DNA of 59,569 nt, filler included, from Dugesia japonica (lineage: Eukaryota), in the NCBI GenBank assembly GCA_001938525.1. It is 6 parts of 6 records of this genome, joined end to end, with 100 filler letters (N's around TTAATTAATTAA, not from the genome) between each part and the next. Parts side by side here need not be neighbours in the genome. Positions count along the whole stretch, not along the records: positions 11,785 to 21,819 come from MQRL01512290.1; 5 more parts are not named here. One strand, written 5' to 3'. The notes under the pieces were generated by a model, which was not told where the DNA came from, did not search any database, and saw only the letters and a program-made list of their open reading frames with translations. Positions 1 through 38,423 of the stretch are shown piece after piece. The number at the start of each line of letters is the position of its first letter. The first letter of the stretch is position 1. The translations under genes and the position numbers were made by a program.

Positions 1-2911
1 CCATGGACATGTTCTCATTAAAAATTTCTTGTGAACTTTTTTTAATTTCATTCCTAGTTTTAAATATAAATCTAGTGTTGAACCTAGACATACATAATTT
101 TTCTTGTCAAATTGATTTAGTGTTAATTTAATATTATCTTTTGATAATTTCTTTCCAAATGACTTTTGATAATTACTTAACATATCTTCTGTAATATTTA
201 TTCTTTCTGGACATAATGAGAAATATTTAGTTTTATCATGAATCTCCGGTGGATAATCAAGATCAACTTCATAAATATAATTAATTTCATCTGTAGCTGT
301 TTCATATTCCAAATTGTCACACTCGTCGATTTCTCCTGTGGGTAGAGGTCTCGTCATCTAACTTGCATATAAAGAATTTTCATCAATATATTTTATAAAT
401 CTATCTTCAAAATAATCTTCTGGAATATTTTTTCCTTCACTTAATAATTTTAAGAGCTTTTCTTTTTCTGCTTCATTTATTTTTCTATATGGTTCAGAAG
501 ATTTGTGACTAAATACTTGTCTTTCTCCTAAAACTCCAGAATATCCACCTCTAATTCCTTTTTCAATTAATAAGAATGTATCATAAGTTTCTGGCTTCGC
601 AAATTTCAAATTTACATTCACATTTAACATTCCAGTTTCCCATGAATAACCTGGTGCTGTATATGAATAACATGGATCTAATCTAAGAATATTATTTAAA
701 CATGAATTCCTAAAATTTTCTAAAAAATCTGCAAGGATTAAAACATCAAGTTTCATGTAATGTAACATGTACTCCCACATATTTTCAAAATCTAAATAAT
801 CTATTAAAAATTTATCATGTTCTTCATCAGATATTCCTTTTTGTGTTAATGTATTGAAGAAATCATTTTTGGTTGGTGTTCTGTTGGATTTTAATAGTTG
901 TTCTACTTCTTGTATATTTTTCCCTTTTACATATTCATAGGGAAATAATGCCTTTTTAGGTTTTAAATTGTGAGATCTTAATATTGGATAATTATTAGAT
1001 TGTGTTAGTAATATACCCATTGTTTCTACTGGTGTGAAAGGTAATAGTCTGGCTGAATCTAGAAATCTAATATTTTCATATTGAAATGTAATATAATTAT
1101 CGCTTGAATGTGGTATTATTCTTTTTACTTTTCCTGGAAATTTTGTTAATAATTCCCTAAAAAATAAATGATTGTCATAACCTGATGCGTTATGAAAATA
1201 GAATGGGATGAATAATTTTTTAACTGAAAGATCGTTTATGTTACATCGATTACATGAAAACCCTCGAAATTCTCCATTGAAATGATTGTGATCTCTAGCA
1301 TATTTTTTTTTATTTGCTTGGAGCAATATCTACATTTTTTGTTGGGTATAAATGCGCTACGCTGACTTTGGGATAAATCTAAGTGATTACCTCTGGCAAT
1401 CTCTTTTATATCTTCTAATTTTTTATTAATCTCTTCTAAAAAGTTAAAATAATCTTCATAAATATTTTCACCTGAGAATTGATAATATTTGCTTTCTAAT
1501 AAATGTGGATATTCACTGTGAAGATAAACACCTAATGACAAAGCTTTTTGTTTTTTAGTTTTTATATTTGTGTAGGCTTCAAAATCTCCTACAAGCATAA
1601 ATGGAATTTTATTTATCTGATAATGCTTATTAAAATAATAATAATAATTATGTTCAAATATAATATTATTTGGTTTATGATGAATGCACAATTCTTGATG
1701 TTTAATTAATATCGCTTCGCTCGAGTAACAATTCATGCATCTGATACAGGGATAATTTCTATTTCAATTCTTTGCGAAAAATACACATAGGTCTCTACAC
1801 AAAATATAATGTTCTTTATAAACTAAAAGATTACATTTAATTTCTTCTGGTGATGGTTTTGTTGAGTAATGAGAAATGTATAATGGTTCAAGTTGTTCAG
1901 AAGCATTTACTGAAAATACATTTATTTATAAATTATTTAATTTCTCGAATTTGCTTATGTCATCAATGTTCATGGGAAATGTAAAATCTGAATATTTTAA
2001 TTCTGATAAATATGGAATATAATTACTTACACGTGTTGGATGATCAACTACATGTTTATGTGCTAATATTGAATAAAGAAAATATTTATCGTCTTCATTT
2101 TCTATGTTGATTACACCCCGTTTTTTAAATGGTAATTTGCAATATGAACCATTAGCTAATGCATCGTATAAAGAAAGATCCATTTTATAATCAACAATAT
2201 ACATCATTGACCATCCTGAACCTTCACGATCTTTATCTTCAATATATCTTTGTAACTCATCAAATATTTCATGAACACTATTTGATATTTCACTTTCCAT
2301 TGTAAATCTTTTTTCTTTTGTATATGAATATAAAATTTTCTCAACATCCATATTATTTATTTGTTTTGTATATTTACAATTTACTAACATGCTTATAACA
2401 ATCTTTTTTCCATAATTAAAATACTTTGTAACAATATCTCTAACTTCATTTTCAAATGAATAAATGTTTCTAATTGGCATGTCATATGTTTCCTCAACAT
2501 TTTTCTTCATTACCACAGCGCTATCTAAGTAATATTAAATATCATAATCTTTATACATTCTTAATAAATCTCTAATTTCTGTATTATAATTAATTGCTTC
2601 TTCCTCTGGTAATTCTTCAAATAAAACTTTTTTTCTTTTTTTTTATGAATGTCGGAATTGAAATGTGCTTTTGCTAAATTTTGTTTTTTAAATGTTTTAT
2701 TACAAATTTCACATTTCAATGGAACGATTTCTGAATTTCCACAAAGTGTTGAATTTAAATGTTCACGTAAACCATTTTAACTTCTAAATTTTTCATTACA
2801 TTTTTGACATTGAAATGATATTGCTTCATTTCTAAAACAAGTTCTAGATGCAAGATGTCCTTTTAAACCAGCTAAGTTTTTAAATACTTTATTACAATTA
2901 TTACACTGCAT
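1..2911 (-). pseudogene. Protein-primed family B DNA polymerase (Polinton type) with N-terminal zinc fingers and an endonuclease VII-like domain; frameshifted
   Basis: ORFs 1926-2516 (EGSGW, VINIENEDDKYFLYSILA), 1236-1736 (GDFEAY, Exo I) and 358-1326 (RDHNHFNGEFRGFSCNRCN; FHNASGYDNH, Exo II; YMKLDVLIL, Exo III; GIRGG; YIDENSLY, Pol A). ATG at 2911 opens MQCNNCNKVF..H, CQKCNEKF..H, CEICNKTF..H with one in-frame stop. Confidence 0.9.
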
Positions 2912-4639: not shown

Positions 4640-5660
4640 CTCCAGAGTTCGTCAGATTTTTATTGAATAAATTTAGTTTTAAAATCATCTTTTTATTGTG
4701 TTATATACTCGTGTTTTTATTATTTTTTAATGTTCCTCGTAATATTTAAAGTTTGATTTTTCTAAATACTTTTTTGTATATATGGTATTTAGGTTTGTTG
4801 ATTTTTATCCATGTTATTCGTAATGAGCGAAATAGTATCCATCAAATTATATTAATATTTCGATACTTACTTTTTGAATTACTTTTGATATTTTCTAAAA
4901 TAATTACCAAATCAGGGAAGACAGCTGTATATCTTTGGTAGGAAGCATTTCTACCGAGATGATATTTTAACTTTGTATAGTCACTTTTTTTATGCGAGTT
5001 AAATGATACCATGGTTAAAACCATACGAGTTATCTGATCGCAGAGATTTAAACGCTAAATTTTGAAATTTGAGAATTTCTCAAGACAAAAACTCATTTAT
5101 TTCATAGAGGATTAACTATGGCGATTTAAATTTAACATATTTTGAATTAGCGAAAATATCGAAAAAAACACTCTTTGTTGACCAATTTTGAAAAGGAAGA
5201 ATTTTTTAGTAAAATTCTTTGTAAAATACTGGCAAAACCGAAAATGATCGCCGTAAAAGTTTGAATCGATTGATTATTATTATCTATATGTTGAAAAATT
5301 GAAAAAGATTTTTTCAAAAATGTGTGATGTTCACCTGGATTCCCGTAAAAATTTATTTAAAAATTTTTAAATTTTCATATTTTTAAAACCTGGGTTGTTA
5401 ACTTAAAATCATTCCCAACTAAAAAGCCTCCAAAATATTACCGCTTAAAAAGATTAAAAAAATTTTCCCAACTTAAAAGCTTGAAAAATTTAAATATCAG
5501 TTAATACTTTGAAAATCAAATTTCAGCGATTAAATTTAATCTAATGGTGTAATTTGTGTGCAAAATCTTTTCGCAACTAAATACGCATTGAAAATTTAAA
5601 ATTAGTTAAGTAATATTACCTAATATGATGTCATTTTTAAATTCCAACTAAAAACGTTAT
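4640..5660 (+). repeat. Dispersed non-coding repeat, inverted homolog of about 33040-34090
   Basis: For example, 4915-4990 gggaagacagctgtatatctttggtaggaagcatttctaccgagatgatattttaactttgtatagtcac matches the reverse complement of 33747-33820. Confidence 0.75.
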
Positions 5661-6157
5661 GATTAAGTTTTATGACATCCATAATCTTGGGTGGTACTGA
5701 ACGTGTGGTGTTCCAATTTGCAGTAACCATCTACTAAGCTGCATGTAAATTATAGTTATCTGTGTAAATTGTAACCATGTGTGTAGGAGATATGGTAAGT
5801 TATGTGTTGTCAGCTATGAGTTAATTATTAAATTTCCATTTATTTCAGTAAAGCTAATTAAAGTTAATTAATTTCACTAAAGTTCATTGAGTATAATAAG
5901 TTTAATAGATTTATAGTATTGTTGGGATCACCTGAGTTGATGGTGAAAAGAAATGATCGCCTGACAAAGACGCCCCTCAGGGGTATCCCTTCAAGAAGTT
6001 AAATCTAACGTCCCTTTATTAGATATTCAGTGCAAAGCGGTTGACCTCCAACGCTTATATGAGGTACACACTCGTAAACCTTTAATTCGGGCTCCTTATT
6101 TTCTTTTATGACATTATAATCAAAATTAATTAACAAGTAGTTATATTTTATATTATA

Positions 6158-6519
6158 TTACAGGGGATCCATAGCACCCGGGTCTAACCACTAGGTTGGA
6201 TCGTCATCTAAAAAGTTGCAAACAGCTTCATCGTCATTGTCATCCCACAGTTACCATGCAGCATTGCCTAGCTGGCAAGATAGGTCAGCGATGCATCTTT
6301 TCAAAAATTTGATTTTGTTTTGTAGGAGCTGTTTTGTTTGTTCCGCAAGGTCCCCCTGCTTCTTTACAATGACATCTAACTTCTTAATCAACCTATTTCG
6401 TTGAGAAAAGTGTTTCAGCAAGGTGAGTTTGGTCTGTTGTTTGTAGTGCCGTTCTAAAAGGAGTCTCCGGATTATTCTATGGCAACGCCTTAGACTGTTG
6501 GGAAATATAATTCGTGACA
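6158..6519 (-). pseudogene. LTR cassette ORF4, copy 1: predicted coiled-coil protein with Trp/acidic tail; starts at acceptor AG|TG
   Basis: SRIIFPNSLRRCHRIIRRLLLERH...QLGNAAW*LWDDNDDEAVCNFLDDDPT*WLDPGAMDPL*; aligns with 15635-16017; two in-frame stops. Confidence 0.8.
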
Positions 6520-6641
6520 CTAAATGAAATAAGTTATAGTTAATTATGTATGTTACCACTATGAATTGTTAATTAAATAATTAAAGAGGAAATCAGTAGA
6601 GAGAAAAAACATTTATTGGTAATTTACAAGATTAGTAAGCA

Positions 6642-6985
6642 TTAAGATCGCACCGTTTGGGTACCCTTGTCTACCATCAATGGTTTGAGTGGCATCGCCG
6701 TTTTTAACTTTAAAATGTTAATGGCCAGTTTATTCTCTCGGTCTTGGTAGGACCGGGTGATTTCGACGAAAGACTCTACTTGAGCCTTCCATATTCTTTC
6801 CTGGTCATGTGAAGCCTCAGCCTTCTTTCTAAACGCAACACATTTTGACTTCTACCGTTTTACTTTGGCTTCCGCTGAAGCAGTATCAGCCTCTCAACGT
6901 CGCTTTGCTAGCCAAAAAGGTACTATGTTATTTCTGTATCATCGCTTGACTCTCTAAATTTTTTAGTGGAGCTACGAAGAATGCA
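6642..6985 (-). pseudogene. LTR cassette ORF3, copy 1: predicted coiled-coil protein ending in VDKGTQT; starts at acceptor AG|TG
   Basis: LAKRR*EADTASAEAKVKR*KSKCVAFRKKAEASHDQERIWKAQVESFVEITRSYQDRENKL...LMVDKGTQTVRS*; aligns with 15169-15527; AATAAA at 6617-6612. Confidence 0.8.
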
Positions 6986-7252
6986 CTAAAAAAATGTAAA
7001 TTTTACGTTCAACAACAATAAAATAGTTTTAAGACTGATTAATTATTAATTATTACGAGGCCACGTAATATACTTTGTTAATTTTACGGCAAATAAAACA
7101 CTATGATATACAGGAATTCATTTGCTATATTTTACTTTTTTATACATAAATTCACATAAATAGAAGTCTATACTGGAGTTTCGTTGATAGGACAGTGGTC
7201 GACATTCTTATCGTTGCCACTACTGGAGGCATTGCGAACACTCCATAAGGTA

Positions 7253-7588
7253 TCATTTATCAACCAACCTATCCCTACTGAAGTCATGACTGGCATTAAG
7301 GTGGCGGGTGTTCTCTATCCACATTCGTTCGTAAACGGGCAATCTGTTTATGTAATAGGTAGACACCATTCTTGCTGAAAGAGTGATACGACTGCGATTG
7401 GGGCCAGTCCACTGGTAATACGTCTGACGATCAGTGGCGTCCATCATTCCTTCTTCATAGGCAGCACTGTCGGGTAGATTTGACCTCGATATCATTACTC
7501 CGACATTCCGGTTATAAGGATTCTAATATTTCTTAAATATCATACTACCGGTAATACGATCTTGTATCAGCTCCCATTTATAATCCAT
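7253..7588 (-). pseudogene. LTR cassette ORF2, copy 1
   Basis: Acceptor atag|aaATG; MDYKWELIQDRITGSMIFKKY*NPYNRNVGVMISRSNLP...RQTYYQWTGP; aligns with 14575-14922. Confidence 0.75.
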
Positions 7589-7703
7589 TTCTATTATGGA
7601 AAATTAATTTATGATGCAAATTATACTAATGGGTGTGAATTTGTTACATAAAACAAATAAGAATAGATAACTTCTGAAAAGAAAAATAAGTTTTATTTTT
7701 AAC

Positions 7704-7904
7704 TCAATTACGACTAATATATCCAATATCGTCAATATCCACCTTTAAAAGAAGGGGGAACATCTCGAGGAAACACTGGAAATCAGTTTCGCCGGGATGC
7801 TCGATCTCACCGTGTGACAAAATGTGGGTCAGTAATTGCCTTAATCGAGCAGTCTTACGTTGCTTTCGGATTAGTCGAAGTGTGTTTCGCAATACTGCTG
7901 GCAT
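7704..7904 (-). CDS. LTR cassette ORF1, copy 1 (basic N-terminus, unknown function)
   Basis: Acceptor tgtag|ataATG; MPAVLRNTLRLIRKQRKTARLRQLLTHILSHGEIEHPGETDFQCF aligns with 14223-14465. Confidence 0.7.
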   Translation of the reverse strand: MPAVLRNTLRLIRKQRKTARLRQLLTHILSHGEIEHPGETDFQCFLEMFPLLLKVDIDDIGYISRN

Positions 7905-8714
7905 TATCTACAATCATATATTGGACAATAAAATCGTGTTATTCACATGGTTATTAAAATTTAAATTGAGTTCGAGTTACGATGGGTCCTTAATATAAGT
8001 ATGTTTCAAAAATATTAAATGTCTTTGTAATTAATAAACAACCGATCTGGTGTTCATCAGCGTAATAATAAAGATGATATAGATGATTTATTATATGGGA
8101 AATCGCAGTGGTAGTGACATTTCTCTACACCAGGATAATAATAATTAGAATAATATTAATAACAATTATACTAACAATAAGGGCCATAATTCTTAAAATT
8201 ATAATAATATTACTATTAACAATGAAACAGTAATCATATTAATCAATAACGACAAAATTGTCAGGTTTAATAACAATAGGTATAATAATAATTTCGTATG
8301 CAAGCATCTGCAAGTAATAATAAAATTAACATCGTCTTGAGACAGAAATTAACAGAATAAAGTTTTAATATATTAATTTTATTTTTTATTGTATTAAACT
8401 TGTGAATTATACAATGACAACACAGTAACATACTCTTACTTATAATGTATGATTAACTGCAACGGGGAATATAACAGCACGGAATTAATTTGAATTATTT
8501 CTCCTGGTAGTTTAACAATGGATAATCGATTCGTTTAAAGTTTCAACTGTCAATTGAACCAATTATGCACTAATAATTCAACCACTTAAAGTTTTCTGAT
8601 TATTTCTCCACTAGTTGTCTTGATAAAATCACTCTGCTGATCTACCAATTAATAACTGAGTTAACCAGATTAAAATTTTGTTTTTTGAAGTTATTTTGTC
8701 TAAAAATTTAGGGG

Positions 8715-8911
8715 TTTAAATAGCATTTCTGCTTGCACCTCCATTTGTTCGGCATTGGCCGGCTATTTTTAATTCAACTTTCTAGTTTTGTATTGGTTCT
8801 CGTGCCAAGTTTTAGATTTTTTTGTAGAGTTTTGGAACTTCTATTGGTGGTTATTTTTAAGTTATCATGTGATGTTCTGTTTTTTGTTTTATTTTTTCGG
8901 CCCCTTATTGG
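8715..8911 (-). promoter_or_regulatory. LTR U3-like promoter, copy 1: four CCAAT boxes and TATA
   Basis: ATTGG at 8907, 8843, 8792 and 8754; TATTTAAA at 8722-8715; spacing 64/51/38/36. Confidence 0.7.
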
Positions 8912-9739
8912 CCAGTTTTTCAGTTGCTTATAGGGGTCTTTCTGATGGTGATATGATTTTCTCAGTACATAATCTTGTTGCCTCAGGTCTTTCTCCTTAC
9001 AGATTTTTTTTCTACGAGTCTCTGTGATTATTATAGGTGGAGATATTCGCCCAAAACTGATTTTTTCTTACTTTTCCAACTTTTATTTTTAAAATTAATT
9101 AATATTTTTCCACTAATTAAGTATTTTCGGTAATACTTTTCTTGTATTTTTATTAATTATTTCATAATTTTTTTTAATTATTGTAATTATTGTGGGTCAG
9201 ATTTGTTCACCCAAGATCTTCATATTTATCCTCTTGGTATTTTGATATTTTGTTAATGGTATTTCTTATAATTTAACCATAGTGGTTATTTTTATTATCT
9301 TTCTTGTAGCTTTTATATATATGTAATAACTTTTCCATCGTAACTATTTTGTTTTGGCCCCCTTTCCTCATTTATTCTTCGATTCTTGCCCCTAGCTTTG
9401 CTTTTCTTTTTAGACTGAGTTGTACTTATACGGTAGACCAATGGTTATAGTAAAAACTTTGGCAACCAATGAATTAATGGGAACTATAAGTCAATAAATA
9501 CACGAATCTAATGGATATAGTATTAGTATACTATACTAATTATATATACTATACTAATATATATAATATATACTATTCATTTAATATAAAAGCTTTGATC
9601 AAATTTAGGTTTTAATTGTTGACATTGGATAACAAATCGATATTTAGACCTTGTCTTCGTCAGGAATTTACTTGAAAAGTAATAAAATAAATAATAATAA
9701 ATAATAAATAATAAAGTAAAAACTAAATAAATAAATGTA

Positions 9740-10525
9740 ATTCGTAAATACAGAGATACAGTTTGCAGAAGTCCAGAACAAAGAAACTTCAACATGAATG
9801 GTATTGAAGGAATGCAACAGAACAGAAACAATAAAAGACTAGAAATAACATGCTGAAATTGTAACAAAATAGGTCATGTAATCAGAAGTTGCCAAGTAAG
9901 GAAAAAAGTGCTATGCTTGTGGATCTGAACACATTTCAGAATAGACTTATCAAAGTAAGTCTAGTTAAGATGCAACAAGAAAGCCTATTACGCAAAGGAC
10001 TGCTAAAAAATATGAAGAGGCAGTGAAGTTATCAGAATAAAAGTGAACATGCCTAGTTTACGCCTTGTTTTCAACCGTTATACTTGGTCTACTTTGCATC
10101 TTGTCATAGCTTATCTCTTGTCGCTTAACCTCTTCTATCGTCAGACTTTCACAGTCATCTTCTTCGTTTATATCTTTGATAATCTCCGATTGGCCTATAA
10201 TCAATTCTTTCTTTAGGAATTTGTAAACGTTTTCCTTTACATCATTGTACTCCTCTAATTGTTTATCTTCGTTTCTTTTTTTTCTATAATTATTTATACT
10301 ACTTTTACTATAATTAACAAAACTGCAATGTTTTGAGATACATAATTCAACGATCCGACAATCTAGACTTCAGTCGGAACTTGGCGATTTTGGTATTCAT
10401 CTTGATAATGATTTAATCCGTCATTTCAATAGTGACTTTTGTCTTCTCTACATCCACAATTGTTCTCATTTTTCTCAATTGAATTAATGTGACTTCCATT
10501 TCTCTTTGTGTAATTATTCATATTA
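9740..10525. mobile_element. Gypsy gag-pro fragment with internal inversion (same family as 44130-45960)
   Basis: 9740-10055 on plus encodes degraded CCHC knuckles (ITC*NCNKIGHVIRSC). 10056-10525 is the downstream gag-end/pre-protease region on minus, matching 44690-45145. Confidence 0.75.
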
Positions 10526-11850: not shown

Positions 11851-12271
11851 TTTATGAATAATAATACTGTTGGGGTGAAACACCCAATGTTGGAAGAGAA
11901 TTGAGACCAAAGGCTCAAAATATAAACTAATAAAGATGGGTGGATCAAAAAGGAAGTTCATTATGAACAAATGGTGGTAGAAAAAGTACAATAATTTTTC
12001 GGGGCAACAAGTGATCGAAATAACGAGTAACATATACCGAAAACGAAGAAAAATGAGCAGGAAGATCCTCAATAAACAAATGCAATTCCCATCGAAATAT
12101 TAATTAGGAATTTCATTAAAATAAGATAAGGCTTCGATCAAAACAAAATTTATTTGTAAAAAAGTTCAAATTTTCGACAANNNNNNNNNNNNNNNNNNNN
12201 NNNNNNNNNNNNNNNNNNNNNNNNNNNNNNTAAGATAAGGCTTCGATCAAAACAAAATTTATTTGTAAAAA

Positions 12272-12306
12272 AGTTCAAATTTTCGACAATAGTCTTCTTC
12301 AGATAA
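12272..12306 (-). ncRNA. Degenerate minimal hammerhead ribozyme-like motif (Penelope type) in a small insertion
   Basis: Minus strand CTGAAGA-A-GAC-TATT-GTC-GAAA-ATTT; stem I is poor. The insert is flanked by an imperfect duplication taattaggaa...attaaa (about 12101-12120 and 12307-12326). Confidence 0.4.
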
Positions 12307-12576
12307 TAATTAGGAAAGTTATTAAATTAATATTAATTTACAGGAAAATTTTTATTGGAAAAGAATTAATTATTGAAGAAATATTAATTAATTTGTAACT
12401 AGAAAATAAATTTAAATTAGTCAAAAATCGGTTTTTCCTAAATATCTCGGGATCAGTTAACCATAGAACCAAGGGTTAAGAAAATTTAAAAAGAAAATGA
12501 TCAGACAGAATGAAATTCTGTATGAAGAAAATTGTATCACCATCGAGAAGGTTTTTACAAAGGTTCAAAGATTAGG

Positions 12577-12776
12577 CCAATGAGGACCCCGGAAATAAAA
12601 ATAAAACAAAGAAGCAAATCTCACCTGATGATCTAAAAATAACGGCCAATGCGAGTAATAAAACTCTGAAAAGAATCTAAAAATTGTGGCCACTGCCAAT
12701 AAAAGTTATGCATTTCAAACTAAAAATAACCGGCTAATAACAACAATGTCGAGTTGTGTCTGAAAATCATTTAAAA
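12577..12776 (+). promoter_or_regulatory. LTR U3-like promoter, copy 2: CCAAT boxes and TATA-like element
   Basis: CCAAT at 12577, 12646 and 12696; CTAAT at 12734; TTTAAAA at 12770; spacing 69/50/38/36. Confidence 0.7.
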
Positions 12777-13039
12777 GCTCATGAAAAATTAGTATAAAAT
12801 TTATTAATTTTTCGAGTTAATTGCAAGTGTGAAGAATCTATTAGTCTATCTATTAGTTTGAAGAAAAAGTGAAAACTTATTATCATCGGAAGCTAAACGA
12901 GAAGTTAAAGTAAAATTGAAAAGGTTTTATCTTTGAATTAATTGCCATATTTACCAAGGAAAACCAAATCGAAAACCCAACTAATATTCACCAATTTGTC
13001 AGCATCCAACTCGTTGCAGAATTCATATACCACTCTATC

Positions 13040-13046
13040 AGTAAGT
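13040..13046 (+). promoter_or_regulatory. Predicted leader-exon splice donor A|GTAAGT
   Basis: Consensus GTAAGT at 13041 after a cgttgcag..tcat block conserved in all three copies. Counterparts are A|GTAAGA (8439, minus) and A|GTAAAA (31649). Confidence 0.6.
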
Positions 13047-14222
13047 AATGTGTCTATGATTTATTTATTATAATTATTGGTTGAAATGATATAAATGATG
13101 CTAACTCAATAAACATTTAATTTTAGATTTTCATTATTATTATTACATACAACATTCATCAATAAGGGCATACTATTTCAATAGACAGCAAAAGTGCTGA
13201 CCTCGTAAATGGATACATTAGTTCCACCCAACGTATTGTCGATTCTCATTTTGATGAAACGACAAAATTGTGATCTCATGACATACCTGTTTTCTTATCG
13301 ACGAGTAATTTATCCCAGCACTTTGACGCAAATTACACAACATGTAACCTTCTGTGGTGTCATCATAGACATACATCACTACTTATCCGATCAGTAATTA
13401 ATTTATTGCAGTCGTGGTTAAAATATACCCATGAAAGTAGATTGGGATTTGAAGTTGCGCAGCCCCCATGCAGACAATAATCGATCAATTAACACCACTA
13501 CACACAGATTTACTCTCTCGCCAAAATTATACTATTACACAATCATGTTGTTAATGTTTGTGTGTACTTAGTCAGTAAGATAATTGATAACAGAAATTTG
13601 TTGGCGTAACCAAGCAACCACATTGCGCAGTAACCCAAAAACAAAAATTAATCGTTTAACGATAATTATTTAAACTGTATTGTTCGCCCTTTTATGATCT
13701 TTGTCGGATATATATTTCAACAGGATGACTCTTGATAATAGATGTTATCATATTACAGCAACCTGATTGTCAATTATTATAATACCTGTTGCGCTTTAAA
13801 TATTATAAGGCCATTAAGATAAAATTCAATTACGAGTTGTCCGATAAAATTCATCATTACGATTATTATTACTTATTATTATCGGTATTATTATTATTAA
13901 GTATTTTATTATTATTACTGGTATTAACGATACTGTAATTATTAATATCTTAGGTTGACTTTATTAATACCACTGANNNNNNNNNNNNNNNNNNNNNNNN
14001 NNNNNNNNNNNNNNNNNNNNAGGTTAATATTATTACCATCATTCTCATTGAGTCTGCTATTATTATCACAGTTGTTAACCAGATTTAAGATCATTTCCTG
14101 TTACAAACCTAGAGAAGTGCAAGAGTTAGTCGTTATTTAGATCAAACATCATTGACTTCTAATGGCTGATTTTATAAGAGTGTGAAATTAATGATGCTTT
14201 AAAATTTATAATTATTCAGAAT

Positions 14223-14465
14223 ATGTCAACAGTGTTAAGAGTTACGTTACAATTAATTCGTAAACAACGTAGGTCCTCTCGATTGATGCAGTTACCGGCA
14301 CACCTCCTCTCTCGAGGCAAAATATAACACCCCGACGAAACAGATCTAACTTGTTTCGCGGTGATTTTCTACTCGGTGGGTTCAACCGATAAAACGTTGA
14401 AGAAGCACCTTCGTGTATATGAACAAGCATGCTCCTCGTTTTGGTTTTTTCTAACAATTATTTAA
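14223..14465 (+). pseudogene. LTR cassette ORF1, copy 2 (one in-frame stop)
   Basis: Acceptor ttcag|aatATG; MSTVLRVTLQLIRKQRRSSRLMQLPAHLLSRGKI*HPDETDLTCF...; AATAAA at 14466. Confidence 0.75.
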
Positions 14466-14574
14466 AATAAAATTATATAGAAGATCAAGGGGTTATATTG
14501 TGGCTTGTAATAATTGTAATTTTCGCAAAATAAGTTGTAACTTAAATAAAACTTTGCTTTCTTATTTATTTAGA

Positions 14575-14922
14575 ATGGAATTTATATGGGAAAGAGTCAT
14601 CGACAGACGAACGCGTCGTATAATTTTTCGACGACATATAAACCCGCACAACCAAGACGCGGAGATTCTTTCAGATCAGTCTAATCTACTCCCAGTAGAG
14701 GCTATGGTAGCACGGATCCAGAATTTTGGGGAACGACAAAATTACCAGCATTGGAATGGACCGGCGCTTGATCACGTAACTCCATTCTGCTATCAGCCTT
14801 CAGCCCCGTCGCCAGCAGTACAAGCTTTTATCACGAATTTGCTCTGGGGTATTAGAGAACCAACGGGTACTGAGAATTCTGAAAATACAGACCCAATAGT
14901 CAACACGGTGACCGACCAGTAA
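14575..14922 (+). CDS. LTR cassette ORF2, copy 2 (intact, 115 aa, unknown function)
   Basis: Acceptor tttag|aATG; MEFIWERVIDRRTRRIIFRRHINPHNQD...RQNYQHWNGP; homolog at 7253-7588; AATAAA at 14986. Confidence 0.75.
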   Translation: MEFIWERVIDRRTRRIIFRRHINPHNQDAEILSDQSNLLPVEAMVARIQNFGERQNYQHWNGPALDHVTPFCYQPSAPSPAVQAFITNLLWGIREPTGTENSENTDPIVNTVTDQ

Positions 14923-15168
14923 TGGTCAGTGTTGTTTATGGTTTCGCTGTAATCTGAAAAAATAGTTTTTTTTCAAAGGCTTAATAATAAATCCGTTTAA
15001 TTTAATTTTTTTTTCTGTTAGTTAAATTGATTTTTGTTAAAAGAATAAGTATATTTGATGATTCGTGAGTTCCTAATGAATATCACCAGGTGTGAGTAGG
15101 TGTTTCGTGCACTTCGCCAGTTTTTTATTTAGTTTTTCGTTGATTTCGTTTAATGATCTATATTCTAG

Positions 15169-15527
15169 TGCATTTCTATTTGAATCGTGCAGCTGCCCCG
15201 ACCAAGAAAATCCGCGAGTCCTGTGATAATACCGAACCTACATGGGATCTTTATAAACTCGCGAAACGGCGGTGGGAAGCAGACTCTGCATCCGCCGAAG
15301 CCAAAGTCCGTCGTTACAATAAGAAATGCCTAGTTTTTAAGACAGAGGCCGAGGCATCACATAGCCAGGAAAGAGTTTGGAAAACTCAATTAGAATCGTT
15401 TACTGAGATCATCCGGTCCTACCAANACCGAGAACATAAACTGGTTGACGATATCTTGAAGTTAAGGAGGATCATGCCGCTAGCGCNTCTTATTGTAGAT
15501 AAAGGAACCCAAACGACTCGCCCATGA
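15169..15527 (+). CDS. LTR cassette ORF3, copy 2 (open; predicted coiled coil; C-terminal LC8-type KGTQT motif); start codon predicted to form by splicing
   Basis: Acceptor tctag|TG CAT; ...AKRRWEADSASAEAKVRR...LIVDKGTQTTRP*; AATAAA at 15546; homolog at 6642-6985. Confidence 0.78.
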
Positions 15528-15634
15528 ACTCTATCAATTTTATTTAATAAAACCGTCTTTTTGAATTAATTGTTATTACGTTTTGCACCTATATATTTTG
15601 AACTAAATACCGAAATTAATGCATTATAATTTAG

Positions 15635-16017
15635 TGCCACGAATTACATTTCCCGACAATTTAAGGCGTTGTCACAGGATAATGCATCGATTACTGGTAG
15701 AGAGACACCTTAAGCGCCAGGCCGAACGTGAACTTTTGAGATATCTCGTACAGCGCAACTAGTTTATAAAAAAGCTAGATCTAATCATCAAGAAATAGAG
15801 CGATCTAGTAGTCCAAACAAAAAACCTAGAAGACCAGTCTGAACCACTACTTCAGCGAAAGGTAGATTTCCTCAAACAATATATCTCTGACCTATCACGT
15901 CAACTGGGGAATCCGACGTGGGTCCAATGGGACGATAGTTATGACCAAGCGTCTTTTGATTTTTTGGTTACCCATCCGGCCCAGTGGTTAGACCCTGGCG
16001 CTCTGGATGAATTGTAA
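15635..16017 (+). pseudogene. LTR cassette ORF4, copy 2 (two in-frame stops); start codon predicted to form by splicing
   Basis: Acceptor tttag|TG CCA; PRITFPDNLRRCHRIMHRLLVERH...QLGNPTWVQWDDSYDQASFDFLVTHPAQWLDPGALDEL*. Confidence 0.8.
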
Positions 16018-16290
16018 TTCTTGAAATATAATGTAGTTATTATTGATGTGTTGATCGGTTTATTTAGTACAATAATAAGGGAAAATAAGGAACCCGAAAC
16101 AAAGATGTACGAGTCACATCCTCCCGTAAAGTTCGAAGGTCAACCGCTCTGCATCGAAGATCTAACCTAAGGGCGTTAGATTAAATTTTTGAAAGGGATC
16201 CCCTGAGGGCCGTTTTCGCCGGCCAGCTTTTTCGTTTCATCGACGACTCAGGTGGAACCCCAACAATACTAATAATACTAATACTAAGAC

Positions 16291-18799: not shown

Positions 18800-21290
18800 A
18801 TTAGAAGATTTTTAAATGATACTTTTAAAGCAAATGACTATTTTGCTTTAGAAATTTTGTGAAAATTTTCAATGATATGTTAATAACAAATGATTATTTG
18901 TTTTAAAATTTTGGCGAAATTTTAAATGAGATTTTGATAACAAATAATTATCTTTAAATTTTCGAATTATTTTTAATGAAAGTTTAATCTAAATTTTTAA
19001 ATTTATTAAAAATAGTTTCCAATTAGAGCATGGAGTTTTAATTTGTTTGAAAAAACAAATAATGATGGATATAGTTTCGTTTTGTGAATAAATCTTTTAT
19101 AGAATCGAGTTTTGATATTAATTATTCGATGAGTACATCAACCTCATCTAACATGGTGGCAGCGGTTAATTTTGCATGCGATCACAGAGAAATTGTTATC
19201 AAAAATATTTTGCAGAGGCGATTATCTAGATAAGTATAATACTTCACATTGCTATTAAGAAAGACCAAGAGCGCTTAATAACATGTATGCTTGATGGAGA
19301 TTTAATGACAACATATGTAAAAACATTGAAGGATGATGACGGATATCAAGAGAGATTGCGATTAGCTTTTGAGAGCAATAGAGATGTAATAAAAGATTTG
19401 CAGAATCTTGTAAGTTTTCAACGTGGAGATGAAGCCCTTGAGTTGTTCTTTAAAAAAGTGAAAGATTTGGTCGATAAAGCTTTAGCAAATGGAGAGCTGA
19501 CGAAAGAAACGCTTTTGTCAAAAATGCTAATAAAATGTGCAAATAGTAAAAAAGAAGAAGAAATTATTATGCAAATATTGAAGAAAGTAGAAGATAAAAA
19601 ACAATATCATTTGTTAAAAGAATAGAAAGAAGAAAACCTATTAACACAGTAAAGAGTTAAGCGGGTGTAACACCTAGAAAACGTACGTGAGATATGATAC
19701 AAAATATCAAGCGAGTTATGAAAAGAACAGAATCACAGTGTTGGACATGTCAGAGTTATGGGCATACCAAAAGATAGTGTCTAAAAAATGCTCATGTGGA
19801 ATAATGGACTTGTCACAAAAAATGGCATTTAAGCAGAAACTGTCCAGACAAAGAAATCAACAAAATGTTTTGGGTGTGATAAGATTGGTCATATCAAAAG
19901 GATGTGCACAGAAATGGTATGTTGTGAATGTAAAATACCAGGTCACAGAGCAGAAGAATGTTATTCGAACATTAGTAAACCTAGACTAGAAGCGAGACGA
20001 CACAATTCTAAACGCGGACAACAAACAAAAGATTAAAGTCGGACCAAACCAATTTATGTCATTTGAGAAGAGGATGGTGAAGAGAATAAATAGATATTTT
20101 CTAGGAGCATAATAGAAAATGAAGACCAGAGAAGAGAATACCTAAAAGGCAGGTCTCCATCAGTAGAGGAGTATGTCGGAGCCATTAACAAAACGAGTTA
20201 CCGTTTGAATATCCTCAAAAGGCCGAGAAATGAAATGAGACGAGTAAAGGGAAAGAAAAGGCTTACAGATTCCTAAAAACAGAAACTTTCAATGATGCGG
20301 AAAAATTTGTTTGCAACATTTCGAAGGCAGATACAGACAGGCGAACGATTGAGACATGCAATGAAGTTTCTAGAAATTAACAAAGATCATAGATTGACCG
20401 CAATTATTCAGAATAATGAAGATGTCTTCATGGTGGATAAATGAGGTATTGAATGCACACACTTAACAAAGCATCGAATAATCATCAAAGGAGGTCCAAT
20501 CAACATAAAACCGTATTGCCAACCAATGAATTCAGAAGAGAAGATTGAAGAGGCCATTAAAAATTTGTTCGATAACGGTATCATCCGTAGGTGTAATTCT
20601 CAATGGAATACGCCATTAATCTGAGTTTGAATTCAGCAAAAAAGGATACAGGATTATGCTTAGACTTTAGACAGGTCAATGCAATAGCAGAAAGACAAGC
20701 TTTTTCTATGCCAAATGTGTAAAATATGCTAGATACTTTGGAAGGTACACATTATTTTAGCTCAATTGACTTGGGAAATGCATTTTATCAAGTGAAACTC
20801 AGTGAAGATTCTCAAGAGAAGAGAGATTTTTCAACTAAACAAGAGCAATTTTGTTTCAATAGAAATACTTTTGGAATTGCAGCAGCACCAGGTACGTTCC
20901 AGGAAATGATGAATAAAGTGATCGGGAAAATAAAAGGAGTAATGGTTTATCTAGATGATATTCTCATATTTACCGCAACAAAGGAGCAACACTTTGAACT
21001 AGTCAATAAAGTATTGACAGAAACTAAGAATGCTTGTCTAAGAGTTTACCTAACAAAATGCCAATTTATCCAAAAGGAGATCAAATTTCTGCGACGCGTT
21101 ATCAGTAAATGACTATTTTTTAAATGAAAGTTTAATCTAAATTTTAAATTTATTAAAAAATAGTTTCCGATTAATGCATGTAGTTTTAATTTGTTTGAAT
21201 AAACAAATAATTATGGATATAGTTTTGTTTTGTGAATAAATCTTTTATGGAAACGAGTTTTGATATTAATTACCCGATGAGCGCTTCAAA
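18800..21290 (+). mobile_element. Internally deleted Gypsy LTR retrotransposon (LTR-PBS-gag-RT-partial LTR)
   Basis: Direct repeats 18967-19142 and 21113-21290; PBS at 19154; gag with CCHC knuckles 19287-20190; RT 20726-21112 (SIDLGNAFYQ, VYLDDILI); no RNase H or integrase. The LTR start is approximate. Confidence 0.88.
19154..19166 (+). other. Primer-binding site complementary to the tRNA-Leu 3' end
   Basis: ...CTAACA|TGGTGGCAGCGGT directly after the LTR end. Confidence 0.8.
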
Positions 21291-21752
21291 CACAAATAAA
21301 GAAGCAATATATGCTATTTTTTCAGAAAAATGGATACGAAACTTTTGTTAAACATTTATAATAATTCAGAAGATTACCTTCTTTAACCTTACTACTCATT
21401 TTTGATTTTCTTAAAATCAGGTAATCTTGAATTAAATACATCTTTCTGTAAAATACTTCTGTAAAAATTATGGTCTTAATTTAATATATTTAAATTTTAC
21501 TAATGGAAATTATAAACTAGTTATAAGCTATCAATTCCAAATTTTAAAATTTACTACAAATTATAAATTTAAAATTTAGTTTTTTTTAAACATATAATTA
21601 CCTAAAATTTAATGTTTATTTCACAAATTTCTTTTATGATTTAATTTAAAATATTTAACAAAATAATTTTAATAAATTCCGTCTCAATATACAAAAAATG
21701 TAACATCGCTTTTAAAAGCAATCATGCAATAATAATAATGATAATAATACTA

Positions 21753-23699: not shown

Positions 23700-26400
23700 G
23701 TTGTGTAATGTGTGGTGTTCATTTACTTAATCTATCCTTTTGCTGTTGTGTTGTGGTGATCAATTCAGTATCTCTTGCACGTTTCTTTGAATTGATTTGA
23801 AATAAATTGTCCTCCTTGATTAGTAATTATGATTTCTAGTGGGCCAAATCTACTGATCCACACTTTTTCGACCGCATCTACAATCGCTTTTGTTGTTATC
23901 TCATTTAATGGTATGGTTTCAGGCCAAGATGTCTCACGATCGATGATTTTAAGAATGAATCGCTTTCCTTCACATATAGGTAGAGGTCCGAAAATATTTA
24001 TGTGCATCACTTAAAACAGTCCTAATTCTGGAATTCAGTGGGGATTGCGTATGACGTGTTATTTTTTGTGATTAACATCTGAAGCATTGTCTAATTCATT
24101 CTCGAATGTCTCGATTTCATCTTTGGCCATATGTAACGAGCTCAAATGAGATATGTTGTTTTCTTGCAATGTTGTGCAATCTGTCTTTGTTTATCGTGTT
24201 GATAGCAAAAGTCTGGGTGTGTGGAACTATCTTTAAAGAATCCGTCAATCTCTTTTATTTTTAGTGAGTGATATTGTCTAAGTGAAGCGTCTGATTGTTG
24301 TTCTTTGATCAATTCATCCTTCGTTATTGAACATATTTTGCCTTAAGATAATTCTTCTGGAATTCTGTATAAGAAGTCAGCTACAAAGTTTTCTGACTGA
24401 TAAATTCAATATTACGCGATTGTCTGTTTTTTGGGTTTTCATCAATCAAATATATAGCAGTGGCTTGTTATCTGTTAAAATTGTGAATTTGCTGCTTTTT
24501 AAGTAATGCTTTAAATTCTTGATGGATAGATAGATGACTAAGATTTCATGGACAAACGTTAAATATTTTTGATCTGTTTTATTTAATTTTCATGAGAAAA
24601 ATGCGATAGGTGCAAGTTTGTAGTTGATTTCGTGATTCAAGCCGGCTCTAACTGCGATATTTGATGCTTCTGTTTGAAGTATTAACTTTTTATTTGAATC
24701 AGGTGGAGTCATATTTGTAATTCGATTCAGCGCTGCTTTGATATCCGAGAAAGCCTTTTCATGCTCGAATATCCATTGTAGCTTCCTGTGAGTATATCTT
24801 CTGGATTGAAAGGTATTTGATGGTAAGCTTTCTTCAGGTCAATTGTCAAAAATAAGGAGCTGTTTCTCAAACAATCTAGAATATATGAAATACCAGGCAA
24901 AGGAATGGTAACTGCATTTAGTAGTCTGTAGTCACCGCATGGGCGATAGGTATTATCTTTCTTTTGGACAACAACTAAGGGAGATGCCCAGGCACTTGTG
25001 CTTCTTCTTTCAACTACATTTTCTAGAATTTTGTTGAATTCATGGCGAACTGCTTCAAGCATTGTTCCAGCTAGTCGTCAAGATTTTTGAGATATAGGTG
25101 GTCCAGTTATCATCATTCGAAGTTCTGGTTTGTGTTTTAGATTATAATTATGCGCTGTTCTATTGGAATGATGATTTGTTTTGCAATCCTTGCACTGTGT
25201 TGTTGTCGAGAATAATTTGATTCCCTCGACAGTCTATTTTAATGAAATTAAGTCTAAAGAAGTCTGATCCTAATATCAGTTGACAAACGTCTGCAAAATT
25301 CCACCTGAATTTTTATGGAAGTTCAACGATGTTAAAGCACAAAGTGCGTTATCCTCGAGTTGAAATTAAGCTACTACAAGTTGAAATTAGTTGTTTGGTC
25401 GTTTCACAATGATCGGTATGAAATTGTTTGGCTGGTAGAATACTAATATCTGTTCCTATGTCAATTTAAAATTTATTACCTGGCTTTGATAATTTGATGG
25501 AACAGTGAATATTGTAGAGACATGTTCCGGTTTACGAGTGAAAGGGTTCTCAATCACCGGAAATATTGAGAATCTTTGTCTTTTCCTTGTGTTTGTTTAG
25601 AATTTCAATCGCATGGTTCACGGCATTTGCTCGCTAATTTTCCATATTTGCGTGTCAATAGCAACTTCCATCTGTTGATATTGACTTTTGTGCATGAACC
25701 ATTTTAAGTTGATTTATCTCATCTTGAAGTTGCTGTATTTCGCTTAAATTGGTTTGACTTGAGATGCTGTGTGCAACTTGTGAAGATTCAATTTAGGCAA
25801 GTCTGTCAATGACCAGCTTTCCTTGGAGACGAGATGAGGCTTGATTTTTTGAATCATTGGTCTTATGAAAGCATTTCTTAACATTATGCTATTGTCTGCA
25901 TCTTTAAAATGTGGTTCTATCTCTTGGAAGTGTCTGCGTAATAGTCGAAGACGATCTGACGGTCTTTGATCTCCCAGAGGTTCGAGGATAAACATTTTAT
26001 CCACATGATATGAGGTCGGCAATTTGATACAGTTGATTATAGCTTCTCAAAGATCTGTATATGGTGTTTCGGATTCTGTATCTAACAATTCCTAAAAAGA
26101 AGCCAGAACTGCTGACGGTAAGATAAGATGGAGGTACTTATAATCTTCTCTTAATATTCTTAAAATCCTTAAGATTGCTTCATTTTGTTTAAACCAGATT
26201 GATGGACATTCGAAGTATTGTGGGAATTTTGTAGTTATTTGGTTACTCCCATGTCACCCTCTTCTGACACCAATGTTGAGTTCGTACAATTTTGATTCCA
26301 TAAATACAAGATAAAGATGGCAATATTTATTAAATTCAAATTTCTGCTTTTCTATTAAAATATATTATTTAAACAAAATGAATTTGTATAAAGTATATTT
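23700..26400 (-). mobile_element. Degraded Gypsy LTR retrotransposon (gag-pro-RT-RH-INT)
   Basis: PBS TGGTGTCAGAAG (tRNA-Leu) at 26272-26261 after an LTR end; gag 25744-26250; RT 24727-25062 (WASPLVVVQKKDNTYRPCGDYRLLN); integrase 23765-24010 (HINIFGPLP, IDRETSWPE, TNQGGQF). Confidence 0.9.
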
Positions 26401-30706: not shown

Positions 30707-32290
30707 TGTTGGGGTGAAACACACGTAAAGAAAGGTAATAAAGCCAAAACTCAAAATCAACAAAGAAGAACAATAAAACCAGTAAATTTACTATTAAGGG
30801 AATTCAAATGAAGAAAGCAATTATGATTAAGGAGGGTTATAATGAAAATAATCAGGAAGGAGGAACAAAATACAAGCAAAGGTGGATACAACGAACAAGG
30901 TGACATAAAAAACAACTTACATCCGTATCAGAATTAAAATGAATTAATAAAATCATAATAAAACTCAAGAAAATCAGTACAAGGAAATGCCTAATTAACA
31001 AAAAAAATATTAATTAATTTGGAAAAAAAAGGAATCAGAATTAACCTAAAATCTGTGTTTCATGATTAACTCCGTTTACGAAAGTCGGAGAGAATCCGGT
31101 TAAGAAAATTCAAGAAGAGAATAACAAGAGTCATTAAGATTTATCAAGAAGGAAATCTTACCACTATCTTGAGGATTGCTACAAGGTTTTCTAGGTCAAA
31201 CCAATCAGATACCTAAAAATAAAAAGAAAACAAAGAGAGAACCATCACGTGGTCCTCCAAAAATAACCACCAATAAGAGCCCTCAAACTCTATNAAAATT
31301 CTGGAATTATGGCACCAACACCAATAAAATGCTAAGATTTGGAAACAAAAATAACATCCAATGATAATGAGGCCGGGTTGCATCGGAAAACCCTATAAAA
31401 AGAACTCTGATTTCAGTCATTTTAGCTTATAACCTTCTAAAGCAAAAAAGAACACTAATATATTATACGGATTTTTTCACTTGCGAATTGAATACTACAA
31501 AATATTCAATTTCCACTAATACCGAATTACGAGTCAGCTATCTGAATTCTCTACTCATCAAAAGTCAAGAAACCCTAACGATCTTATTTTCGAATCAAGA
31601 ATTCCATCCGAGCCGTTACAGAAAATCATCCCTAGTTATATACGAAAAGTAAAATGTTTTTCCTATTTTATATTCATATGTATCAATAATAATTTTAACA
31701 AATGAAATTTCGTTGATTTATTTATTTTACAATAAAATTAAAACATTTTTTTTGACTCACTACGATAAACCTGAAAAGTTTAACTTTAATTCTACACACA
31801 AGATTGTAGGTGTGGCCAGTATTGCGATTTACTCCGGAAATATTAGCATTACAAAATCTCTCTGTGCACACCGATTAGTGATCAAGTTAGGGAGTGAAAG
31901 TCCACCCTGTGATAATAGGGGAATGAAAGGGATTATTTCTCGAAACAGGTTTTCATGCACGAGTAGAAGGCATAAATCCAACGAGATGAAAGCGATGGGT
32001 AACGTTTGTTGGCCAGAATAATCCTGGGAAAACACATTGAATTGATTTAATAATCATTATAAAATAAATTCCCATAATTCAGCTAAATCTCTTAGATTCC
32101 GTTGTTGTTAGAATGTAATACGAGTAATTGGTGAGATGGATCATCAACGAATTACTGAATAATTGCTAGTATGCATAACTAGATCTGTACACACATGCCA
32201 GGCAGTATACCAAGGATTGACTACACTAAAAAAAGTTTAAGAAGTGAATAGTTACAATCAAATTCTTACCTGATAATAAATTGCTTAATT
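30707..32290 (+). mobile_element. Giant solo-LTR-like element, copy 3 (5' part, cut by a contig gap)
   Basis: Starts TGTTGGGGTGAAACAC after taatatat-like target (ATAT); CCAAT at 31201, 31270, 31321 and 31358; TATAAAA at 31394; leader block ccgttacag..atcat; candidate donor at 31649. Confidence 0.8.
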
Positions 32291-32559
32291 NNNNNNNNNN
32301 NNNNNNNNNNNNNNNNNNNNNNNNNNNNNNNNNNTTAATTAATTAANNNNNNNNNNNNNNNNNNNNNNNNNNNNNNNNNNNNNNNNNNNNTAGAGTTTTT
32401 CTTCGGGAATAGTCAGTTTGGGTAATTTTTGGACAATTTTAGCCATTTATTTACTCACATTAGTTGATTTGGGTTAAAATTTAAGGAAATTCATGTGAAA
32501 AGTTGAATGTTTTTAAATTTTAAAGTTTTTAACAAATTTTTTATGGAAATATTTTTTAG

Positions 32560-34090
32560 GAATCCTGAAAAACCGTTCATGTTGTTTATCGAAATTAATA
32601 CTATTCGATGGAAAATGTTACATTAAGTACGAATAACACAGTTAAAAATCACCAAACCTTATAGATAAAATGTTATATTGAAGAAAACAACTACTTAATT
32701 TGGGAGTTCTTGAGGAATATAAAATTATGATAATTTATTCAGTACGATCAATTTTGGGTAGTTTTTTATAACAATTTGTATGGAATTTTCATCTTCAACA
32801 GTCTTCAGTTATCAAAGCTCTATGCCCTAACCACTAGATTTCAGGCATCAAAACCCTGCTAGCAGTGCACTGATCATTAATTATCAACGGTGAACAAATT
32901 AAACCATTAACTGTAAAATTAATAGGTAAATGATGATAAAGAGTATTGTGTATGTTAATAATTGATTAGTAGATAGATACTGGCGGGGAACCTCAGTACA
33001 CATTCAGTAGCCCCTATCGTGATGTAATGAAACTATATCCTAATGCATTTAGTTGGAAATTTAAAAATTGCATCATAAATTGCATCATTAGGTAATATTA
33101 TGTCAGAGAGGTTATTTTTTCCCAGTGTATTTAGTTGGGAAAATTATTTGCACACAAATTGTCTTATGAGATTAATTCCATCAGTGAAAATTTACGTAAT
33201 AGGGTTAAGAGAGGCTACTTTTTCCTGTGATTTTTGTTGGTAAAATTGTTTAGGCTTTTTAAGTGGTAATATTATTTTTAGGCTTTTTAAGCGGTTATAT
33301 TTTTTAGGTTTTTTAGGTGACAAAAGTTATTTATTGGAATTTTTTTTTGAGAATTCGGGTAAACCATTTATGTTGTTTAAATAATATGAAAATTAAAAAT
33401 TTTTAAATAAACGTTTTATAAGAATTTGGTTAAGCAGTTAAAATGTTTGTTATATATCTCCAATTTCAAAGATTTTTATAAAAAACTGCTAAGAAATTTA
33501 AGGCGATCATTTCTCACTTAAAATTTTTTTTCGAAAAAAAAGAATTTTCATTCTCAAATAGGTCGATAGAGAAATTTTTGCTGATTCCAAATATGTTAAC
33601 CTAAAATCGCCAAAATTAATATCCGATGAAATAAATGAGGTTTTTTTGTAAAAGAAAATCAAAACTCGGAAATCAAACCTCTGATCTCTGTGCGCAGGGG
33701 TCAGCTATCGACTTAACTTTGGTATTATTTTAATAAAAGGGGAAAAGTGACTGTACAAAATTAAAATATCGTCTCGGGGAAAAATGCTTCCTAACGAATA
33801 TGTACAGCCGTCCTCCAGGATTTAGTGAGATTTTTTGAAAACATCAAAAGTAACTCAAAGTTTATCGAAGTTGATACTATTCGATAGGGAATTTTACGGT
33901 GAGTACAAATAACAGAGTTAAAATCAAGAAACCTTATACATAAAAAGGTATCTAGAAAAAACAAGTAATTTATATGGCAGTCCCCGAGAAATATTAAAAA
34001 TAATAAAAATTTACTTTAAAATTAAATAAGAAGATGAAGTTATTTTTTTAAAGTAAATGATTTATTTAATAAAATCTCATCAATAGGTTT
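32560..34090 (-). repeat. Dispersed repeat homologous to 4640-5660, with an internal partial duplicate (32580-32730 vs 33860-34010)
   Basis: Direct sequence comparison. Confidence 0.7.
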
Positions 34091-34259
34091 GTTGTTTGAT
34101 TATTGACCTGTTTGAAAATACTGAAACAATTATTTAGACTTCATAGAAGTTTTTTCGCTAAGAAGACTATAACATTTTTGTTCTCAGAAAAATCCATTCC
34201 TTATACCTTATGCCTTTGGACTAGTCTTTAAATTTCTCTACAACAGAATTCAAGTCANN

Positions 34260-37020: not shown

Positions 37021-37188
37021 CTCCTTTTAGTAATCATCTTCAACTATGATTNNNNNNNNNNNNNNNNNNNNNNNNNNNNNNNNNNNNNNNNNNNNNNNNN
37101 NNNNNNNNNNNNNNNNNNNNNNNNNNNNNNNNNNNNNNNNNNNNNNNNNNNNNNNNNNNNNNNNNNNNNNNNNNNNNNNNNNNNNNNA

Positions 37189-37458
37189 TTCAGTTTCTTT
37201 TTGTTTTTTGATTGCATTTCTAGAATTACTTACAGTTGAAGCTATGCAAGAAGCTTCTCCCGCAGCTCCTGTTAAACCAGCAATTATAGCTGGTATTGCA
37301 GCAAGAAAAATAAATCCTCCTTCATGTTCTTTACCTAATTTCTTTTTTATTTCTATAACTTTATTTCGAGTCCAATAGTTTTTACCATTAATTTTTACAG
37401 ATTTACATTTATTTGAATTTACCAAATCATTTAATTCTTGTTCTGATATTGAAGACAT
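37189..37458 (-). CDS. Polinton virion/core protein with an adenovirus pX-like GGF-hydrophobic motif (3' part in gap)
   Basis: HEGGFIFLAAIPAIIAGLTGAAG resembles the adenoviral pX GGFLPALIPIIAAAIG segment. Confidence 0.6.
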
Positions 37459-37601
37459 TTTCTTTTAAAAAATAATAAAATATATTTAGTTTTTCAATGG
37501 NAAATTATCACCTCTTTCATCTCTTTCAATTCCTCTTTACATCTTTCTCCTCTTTTTACCTCTCAATTAAAGAGGTAGGATGATTTTAAAAAGATGTGTA
37601 A

Positions 37602-38234: not shown

Positions 38235-38423
38235 NNNNNNNNNNNNNNNNNNNNNNNNNNNNNNNNNNNNNNNNNNNNNNNNNNNNNNNNNNNNNNNNNN
38301 NNNNNNNNNNNNNNNNNNNNNNNNNNNNNNNNNNNNNNNNNNNNNNNNNNNNNNNNNNNNNNNNNNNNNNNNNNNNNNNNNNNNNNNNNNNNNNNNNNNN
38401 NNNNNNNNNNNNNNNNNNNNNNN

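Follow-up and report, generated by a model that had tools for sequence, protein, structure and literature searches.

Long terminal repeats (LTRs) of retrotransposons are usually treated as non-coding. In complex retroviruses, sag of mouse mammary tumour virus and nef of human immunodeficiency virus are encoded in the LTR/U3 and are expressed by splicing. Giant planarian Gypsy elements of the Burro/GYPSM1 type have a total length of >30 kb with an internal part of up to 25 kb, occur in thousands of copies and carry accessory open reading frames (ORFs), as described in the accessible passages of PMC6431247. The env start codon of springer-subclade errantiviruses is completed by splicing from a non-coding leader (AU/G; available text of bioRxiv 10.1101/2023.08.03.551782), and the MDG1 group of Drosophila contains small selected accessory ORFs, sORF1 and sORF2, which precede gag and are separated by a poly(A) site (accessible parts of PMC11952523). 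Here, we analysed a window of 59,569 nucleotides from the planarian Dugesia japonica (GenBank assembly GCA_001938525.1; six parts of six records joined by 100 filler letters each), which contains an element at 11868..16265 (plus strand), hereafter element A. Element A is probably the solo LTR of a giant, Burro-like Ty3/Gypsy retrotransposon; it contains four selected ORFs, likely accessory genes served by one promoter and predicted alternative splicing.

Element A opens with TGTTGGGGT at 11868 and closes with ACCCCAACA at 16265. It is surrounded by AAT repeats and bordered on both sides by the target-site duplication (TSD) ATAC (11864..11867, within an AAT-repeat tract, and 16266..16269); the exact junctions are AATAATAC/TGTTGGGG on the left and CCCCAACA/ATACTAAT on the right, and the target is AATACT. 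The ends fit the TGTNR type and show no long terminal inverted repeats (TIRs). A first-pass annotation made from the sequence alone had given the TG..CA ends and the TSD exactly, but the inverted ends comprise 9 bp rather than 8; its span of 4.4 kb was likewise correct, but approximately 200 bp near 12111-12306 are a secondary insertion, leaving an element proper of approximately 4.2 kb. ORF and profile searches identified no gag/pol or transposase ORF inside element A. TG..CA/TGTNR ends, a 4-bp TSD on both sides, the lack of an internal region and membership in a dispersed multi-copy family are the features of a solo LTR.

The window contains three copies of this family. Copy B (5920..9180, minus strand) comprises promoter, leader, four ORFs, tail and a right end followed by ATAC (CCCAACA/ATAC at 5920). 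BLASTN within the window aligned it in inverted orientation with element A at 5929-6967, 7758-7909 and 8754-9171 (62-64% identity). The annotated inverted copy at 5920-9420 indeed keeps all four ORFs in order between diverged spacers, but its left end is lost and homology begins near 9180. Copy C (30707..31760, plus strand) opens with ATAT/TGTTGGGG at 30707 and contains the promoter (30944-31400, 64% identity to element A), an ATG-free leader and a donor-like site, followed by a non-homologous body; the promoter proposed for this third copy was thus found, together with the left terminus, but its leader is alike in layout only. No ORF homologue was found in 31600-34400, and CCCAACA at 34330 was judged unconvincing as a right terminus for this copy. 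Within its body, copy C has at 31650-32290 a stretch of higher GC content and an acceptor-like GATTGTAG similar to the ORF1 acceptor of copy B, with no protein similarity. The last 333 bp of element A matched 1269, 1105 and 1223 contigs in the DNA-like runs X1, X2 and X3, and the summed depth at the terminus peaked at 12,700-37,500 versus 5-17 for single long contigs, values that are a sign of a large family and not a copy number. The family is very abundant. Depth remains high over the first approximately 18 letters of the AAT-like flank, a pattern suggestive of an insertion preference for AAT tracts.

The four ORFs are located at 14223..14465 (ORF1), 14575..14922 (ORF2), 15169..15527 (ORF3) and 15635..16017 (ORF4), all on the plus strand, and their identities to copy B are 59%, 27%, 66% and 58%, respectively. 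Selection was evaluated with gap-free blocks from protein-level alignments of element A and copy B. The proportions of synonymous and nonsynonymous differences (pS/pN) were 0.72/0.23 for ORF1 (48 codons), 0.87/0.41 for ORF2 (68 codons), 0.78/0.18 for ORF3 (85 codons) and 0.83/0.23 for ORF4 (116 codons). Bootstrap upper bounds of pN/pS were 0.34-0.63, whereas shifted frames gave 0.58-2.4 with many stops, and third codon positions differed most in all four ORFs. Alignment scores of the first intron and of the three spacers between ORFs lay within two standard deviations of those of shuffled sequences; promoter and tail scored far above. The four ORFs show purifying selection and were genes, in agreement with the conserved ORFs and diverging spacers noted in the first pass. 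As a correction to the first pass, not all of them are open: in element A, a stop at 14325 interrupts ORF1, whose frame diverges near 14370, and ORF4 is interrupted by two stops, at 15760 and 15796. ORF2 (115 aa), the fastest evolving of the four, is open in element A, and ORF1 is open (66 aa) in copy B, where ORF2, ORF3 and ORF4 contain stops and a frameshift lies near the ORF3 start. Both ORF-bearing copies are partly decayed.

Upstream of the ORFs, a conserved U3-like promoter block (12315..12780, plus strand; 64% identity to copies B and C) contains repeated CCAAT boxes and a TATA-like box. The boxes at 12577, 12646 and 12696 align in all three copies, but the fourth CCAAT of the first-pass annotation is CTAAT in element A (CCAAT in copies B and C). 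The block has a non-coding pattern; a coding function was ruled out by mismatches of 31/21/26 by codon position. It is followed by a predicted ATG-free leader exon (12795..13040, plus strand) with A as its final base and by a predicted splice donor, GTAAGT (13041..13046, plus strand). Donor-like sites are located 255-275 nt behind the TATA-like box in all copies, at 13041 in element A, 8439 in copy B and 31649 in copy C (the latter weaker, GTAAAA), and the preceding base is A in 3/3 copies. Counted from 25 nt behind the TATA-like box to the donor, the leaders of A, B and C contain no ATG versus 4.2, 4.9 and 2.8 expected (shuffle P 0.010, 0.004 and 0.057), and only 15/424 background windows lack ATG. 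These leaders barely align with each other. Element A does have one ATG at 11 nt from the TATA-like box, a position that precedes the presumed start.

The donor at 13041 and the acceptors at 14220, 14574, 15169 and 15635 are present as annotated. All four ORFs lie at an AG as proposed; ORF1 and ORF2 have an ATG 1-3 nt behind it, but ORF3 and ORF4 have no ATG there and open with TG directly behind AG in both copies A and B. Only 15/225 acceptor-like sites are followed by TG, and identity between A and B begins sharply at TAG/TG of both ORFs. In copy B, no upstream in-frame ATG exists for ORF3 or ORF4. Joining of the leader to ORF3 or ORF4 is predicted to read A/TG, with the leader likely supplying the first letter of the start codon. 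Donor, ATG-free leader and acceptors are conserved across copies, as expected for a spliced multi-gene unit. An AATAAA follows each of ORF1-3 in element A, as annotated, but in copy B only ORF1 and ORF3.

Element A has a donor-to-ORF1 distance approximately 600 nt longer than that of copy B, and the extra part holds two candidate cassettes on the plus strand that occur only in A and have no Pfam match: one encoding 62 aa behind an acceptor-like site (13209..13397) and one encoding 46 aa (13431..13571, acceptor 13412). The X9 contig depth over this stretch is 6-12 versus 160-200 over ORF3, and cassette content therefore appears to vary among subfamilies. Before ORF1, both copies contain an ATT-rich stretch behind an acceptor and ATG (13724-14080, plus strand, and 8307-8127, minus strand), which reads as an Ile/Leu-rich hydrophobic peptide with stops and represents the remains either of a small membrane-protein cassette or of a microsatellite. 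Downstream of ORF4, element A ends with a conserved non-coding 3' tail and the right terminus (16018..16265, plus strand; 69% identity to copy B, weak codon bias). At 16070-16265 and 5920-6110, this tail is conserved as strongly as the genes (69%) with neither coding nor folding signal and is probably a cis element. A fifth ORF was ruled out (mismatches 7/8/12 by codon position), and folding was no better than that of shuffles (z -0.79 and -0.35). An Rfam search gave no match.

The four ORF proteins belong to no known family in the databases searched. ORF1-4 gave only matches with E values of 0.016 or worse against Pfam, PHROGs and PDB; ORF1 and ORF3 had no significant match in a set of 5.8 billion sequences, and Atlas matches of ORF2 and ORF3 scored 0.86 or less. 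No homologue was found for ORF3 at near or longer lengths or in viral contigs, nor for ORF4 in metagenome contigs. The single match of ORF4 among 1.84 billion representatives, a 1236-aa Cys/Asp/Thr repeat protein, was rejected as a repeat artefact, and neither the WW-like appearance of the ORF2 N-terminus nor the bZIP appearance of ORF4 had Pfam support. ORF1 encodes a basic helical protein with an H..EH.xETD..C motif; its structural model is all helix at low confidence (pLDDT 54). Inspection of ORF1-4 revealed no transmembrane helix with N-myristoylation signature of the MDG1 sORF2/FAST-like type; an Ile-rich stretch before ORF1 was noted alongside this comparison.

ORF3, a helical, coiled-coil-like protein, ends with VDKGTQT in both copies (15495-15515 in element A); the two coding stretches show three synonymous differences. 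LC8/DYNLL proteins bind the motif [D/S]-K-X-[T/V/I]-Q-[T/V], with V at -5 raising the affinity (accessible text of PMC3078936). The ORF3 terminus fits this consensus including V at -5, but departs from D/E at +2, where it has T or V. It is preceded by a heptad-like helix, and the LC8-type pattern matched only twice in 119,134 six-frame window positions, both times at the ORF3 ends. ORF3 is predicted to be an LC8/DYNLL-bound coiled-coil dimer. ORF4 combines a basic N-half (charges +10 and +12) with heptads in its middle part and a tail that is both acidic and aromatic (-7 and -10), and from this layout a zipper protein with an activation-like tail, arranged as in a transcription activator, is predicted.

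Several observations weigh against a spliced accessory array in an LTR. No paired LTR, primer-binding site or polypurine tract was seen in the window, although the LTR assignment of the first pass agrees with both termini and the TSD, with the copy number and with the absence of long TIRs. The selection test compares one pair of copies in blocks chosen by protein similarity. GTAA-type sites are often preceded by A in this sequence (87/247), and AATAAA is likewise frequent, present in 182/533 AT-rich 110-nt windows. In element A, an in-frame ATG lies 5 codons ahead of each TG start, and ORF3 and ORF4 would therefore not strictly depend on splicing in this copy. RNA was evaluated in three poly(A)/cDNA runs (X11, X12 and X15; approximately 6, 25 and 25% read) out of seven listed raw-read RNA runs against 11862-15426 at 85% likeness, a stretch that ends before ORF4. 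Coverage fell mainly on the inserted repeat and the ATT-rich stretch; ORF1-ORF3 had depths of 0.5 or less, and no joint leaving 13040 was observed in these runs, in which the family is nearly uncovered. Among indexed runs, no RNA run was listed as carrying the element. A joint in X9 between 12868 and 14542, bounded by GT..AC and with one side of 21 letters, was not accepted as splicing. LTR elements of planarians are under repression by PIWI (PMC8532177, as far as accessible), which would explain silence of the family. The spliced leader-to-ORF transcripts proposed earlier thus have their donor, acceptors and ATG-free leader in the DNA, but no junction in three runs with almost no coverage. 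That every solo LTR is a self-contained expression cassette goes too far, with both ORF-bearing copies decayed and relatives of at least 85% identity essentially silent in the three runs.

The lack of RNA junctions also agrees with real LTR genes read from unspliced or separately started RNAs, using the upstream ATGs of element A or GUG starts (AG-TG is also readable as GTG); in the MDG1 group, sORF transcripts stay unspliced and use alternative poly(A) sites (accessible parts of PMC11952523). We consider this unlikely, since the upstream ATGs are missing in copy B, conservation starts exactly at AG, the spacers contain no conserved promoter and three diverged leaders all lack ATG. A similarly low probability is assigned to a whole non-autonomous 4.2-kb element with cargo genes, whose mobility would depend on a Gypsy-type integrase or a Ginger-like transposase supplied from another locus. 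Ginger1 and Ginger2 have TGTNR ends, 4-bp TSDs, TIRs of 40-270 bp, a Gypsy-like DDE transposase and CCGG or RTATAY targets (accessible text of PMC2836005). TG..CA ends with a 4-bp AT-rich TSD, which also fit Ginger2, the high copy number and the absence of gag/pol nearby speak for such an element, whereas inverted ends of 9 bp, the lack of a transposase, the AATACT target and the polar layout from promoter to tail speak against it. So does a hint from X9, in which two contigs, of depth 93.2 and 8.36, extend beyond the terminal CA by 10 and 30 letters. Among the matches listed, the row of loose ends past CA comprises two contigs with an agreement of 0.9, does not start with ATAY and, judging by the lengths, has these two contigs as its members. 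A shared deep continuation is what a 5' LTR-internal junction would give; it was seen as two contigs in 1/4 runs among the matches listed, which limits its weight for the LTR assignment. Finally, the ORFs are very improbably passive fragments of known transposon, viral or host proteins. Both copies contain stops, and blank searches are weak where databases lack the host, but each of the four comes with a start, a stop and an acceptor of its own, the protein searches above gave no significant match, and selection postdates the A/B split.

For a solo LTR of a Burro-like element, transcription would start near 12800, and the leader made from the U3-like promoter would be joined via its donor to one acceptor at a time, giving one mRNA per cassette, each with a separate poly(A) site at its end. 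Joining to ORF3 or ORF4 would build A/UG, and these two proteins would be made only when spliced. Genomic RNA would arise by unspliced read-through from the 5' LTR. Behind the donor, AATAAA occurs at a distance of 67 nt in A, 49/56 nt in B and 82 nt in C. By analogy with the donor-controlled poly(A) sites known from foamy-virus LTRs, it may mark the R/U5 boundary, placing the array in a 3-kb U5; the background rate of AATAAA makes this assignment a weak one. Selection would have acted while the genes rode in replicating elements, and LTR-LTR recombination would have left solo copies that then decay. With the extra modules of element A and the different body of copy C in mind, we tentatively put forward, as a possibility somewhat against the odds, that the LTR is a modular cassette array: one promoter and an ATG-free, A-ending leader would serve variable acceptor-ORF-poly(A) modules gained and lost by subfamilies, a new module needing only AG-TG for its activation. 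The retrotransposon would thereby keep an evolvable accessory genome in its LTR, including a dynein-light-chain binder, scattered through the host as very many solo copies.

The insertion at 12111..12306 (minus strand) is a very high-copy repeat with a TAATTAGGA duplication on either side; it spans an N gap, is absent from copies B and C in the alignment, reaches an X9 depth of about 48,000 and occurs in poly(A) reads. Its degenerate CTGAAGA..GAC-loop-GTC-GAAA motif resembles the minimal hammerhead of Penelope elements (PMC4209133, accessible part); the fold of the whole piece was no better than that of shuffles (z +1.2). A 59-bp duplicate flanking the N gap may be an assembly overlap. In run X8, a second organism carries 0.08 of the words, possibly only of this repeat. 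Another dispersed repeat (65% identity, inverted) adjoins copies B and C at 4658-5679 and 33021-34074. Decayed ordinary LTR-retrotransposon fragments lie at 18970-21300, 23765-25062, 44532-48847 and 9785-10523, the last occupying the expected place of the left end of copy B; reverse transcriptase matches are at 20726 and 24727. Fragments at 358-2510 (minus strand), which weakly match a type-B DNA polymerase (E 0.0012), are probably a decayed Polinton, and 37027-39660 may be more Polinton-like fragments.

Split starts (springer env), small accessory ORFs (MDG1) and LTR-borne genes in some retroviruses are already known. Title and abstract searches of the literature, in which the primary Burro papers, which may bear on novelty, were not covered, gave no description of ORF arrays in planarian LTRs or of a row of four or more ORFs inside a repeat fed by one leader. 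If true, the element represents an invertebrate retrotransposon with an accessory set like that of complex retroviruses in an unreported place, its protein families would be missed by gene finders because the ATG exists only after splicing, and reverse transcription through an R/U5 that is kilobases long and contains internal poly(A) sites would call for an explanation. Burro elements resemble element A in their implied multi-kb LTRs, abundance and accessory ORFs, a fit of size and not a sequence test; compared by description only, their accessory ORFs lie upstream of or inside the polyprotein, and the accessible passages of PMC6431247 mention none in the LTR. Springer splits its start as AU/G for one env gene downstream of pol, whereas element A is predicted to use A/UG for at least two small non-env genes in the presumed LTR. 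The two MDG1 sORFs follow the LTR and are unspliced, whereas the ORFs of element A lie inside the presumed LTR. As in sag and nef, a coding frame is placed in a terminal repeat and would be expressed by splicing, but those are single genes in U3, whereas in element A four or more are lined up behind the promoter.

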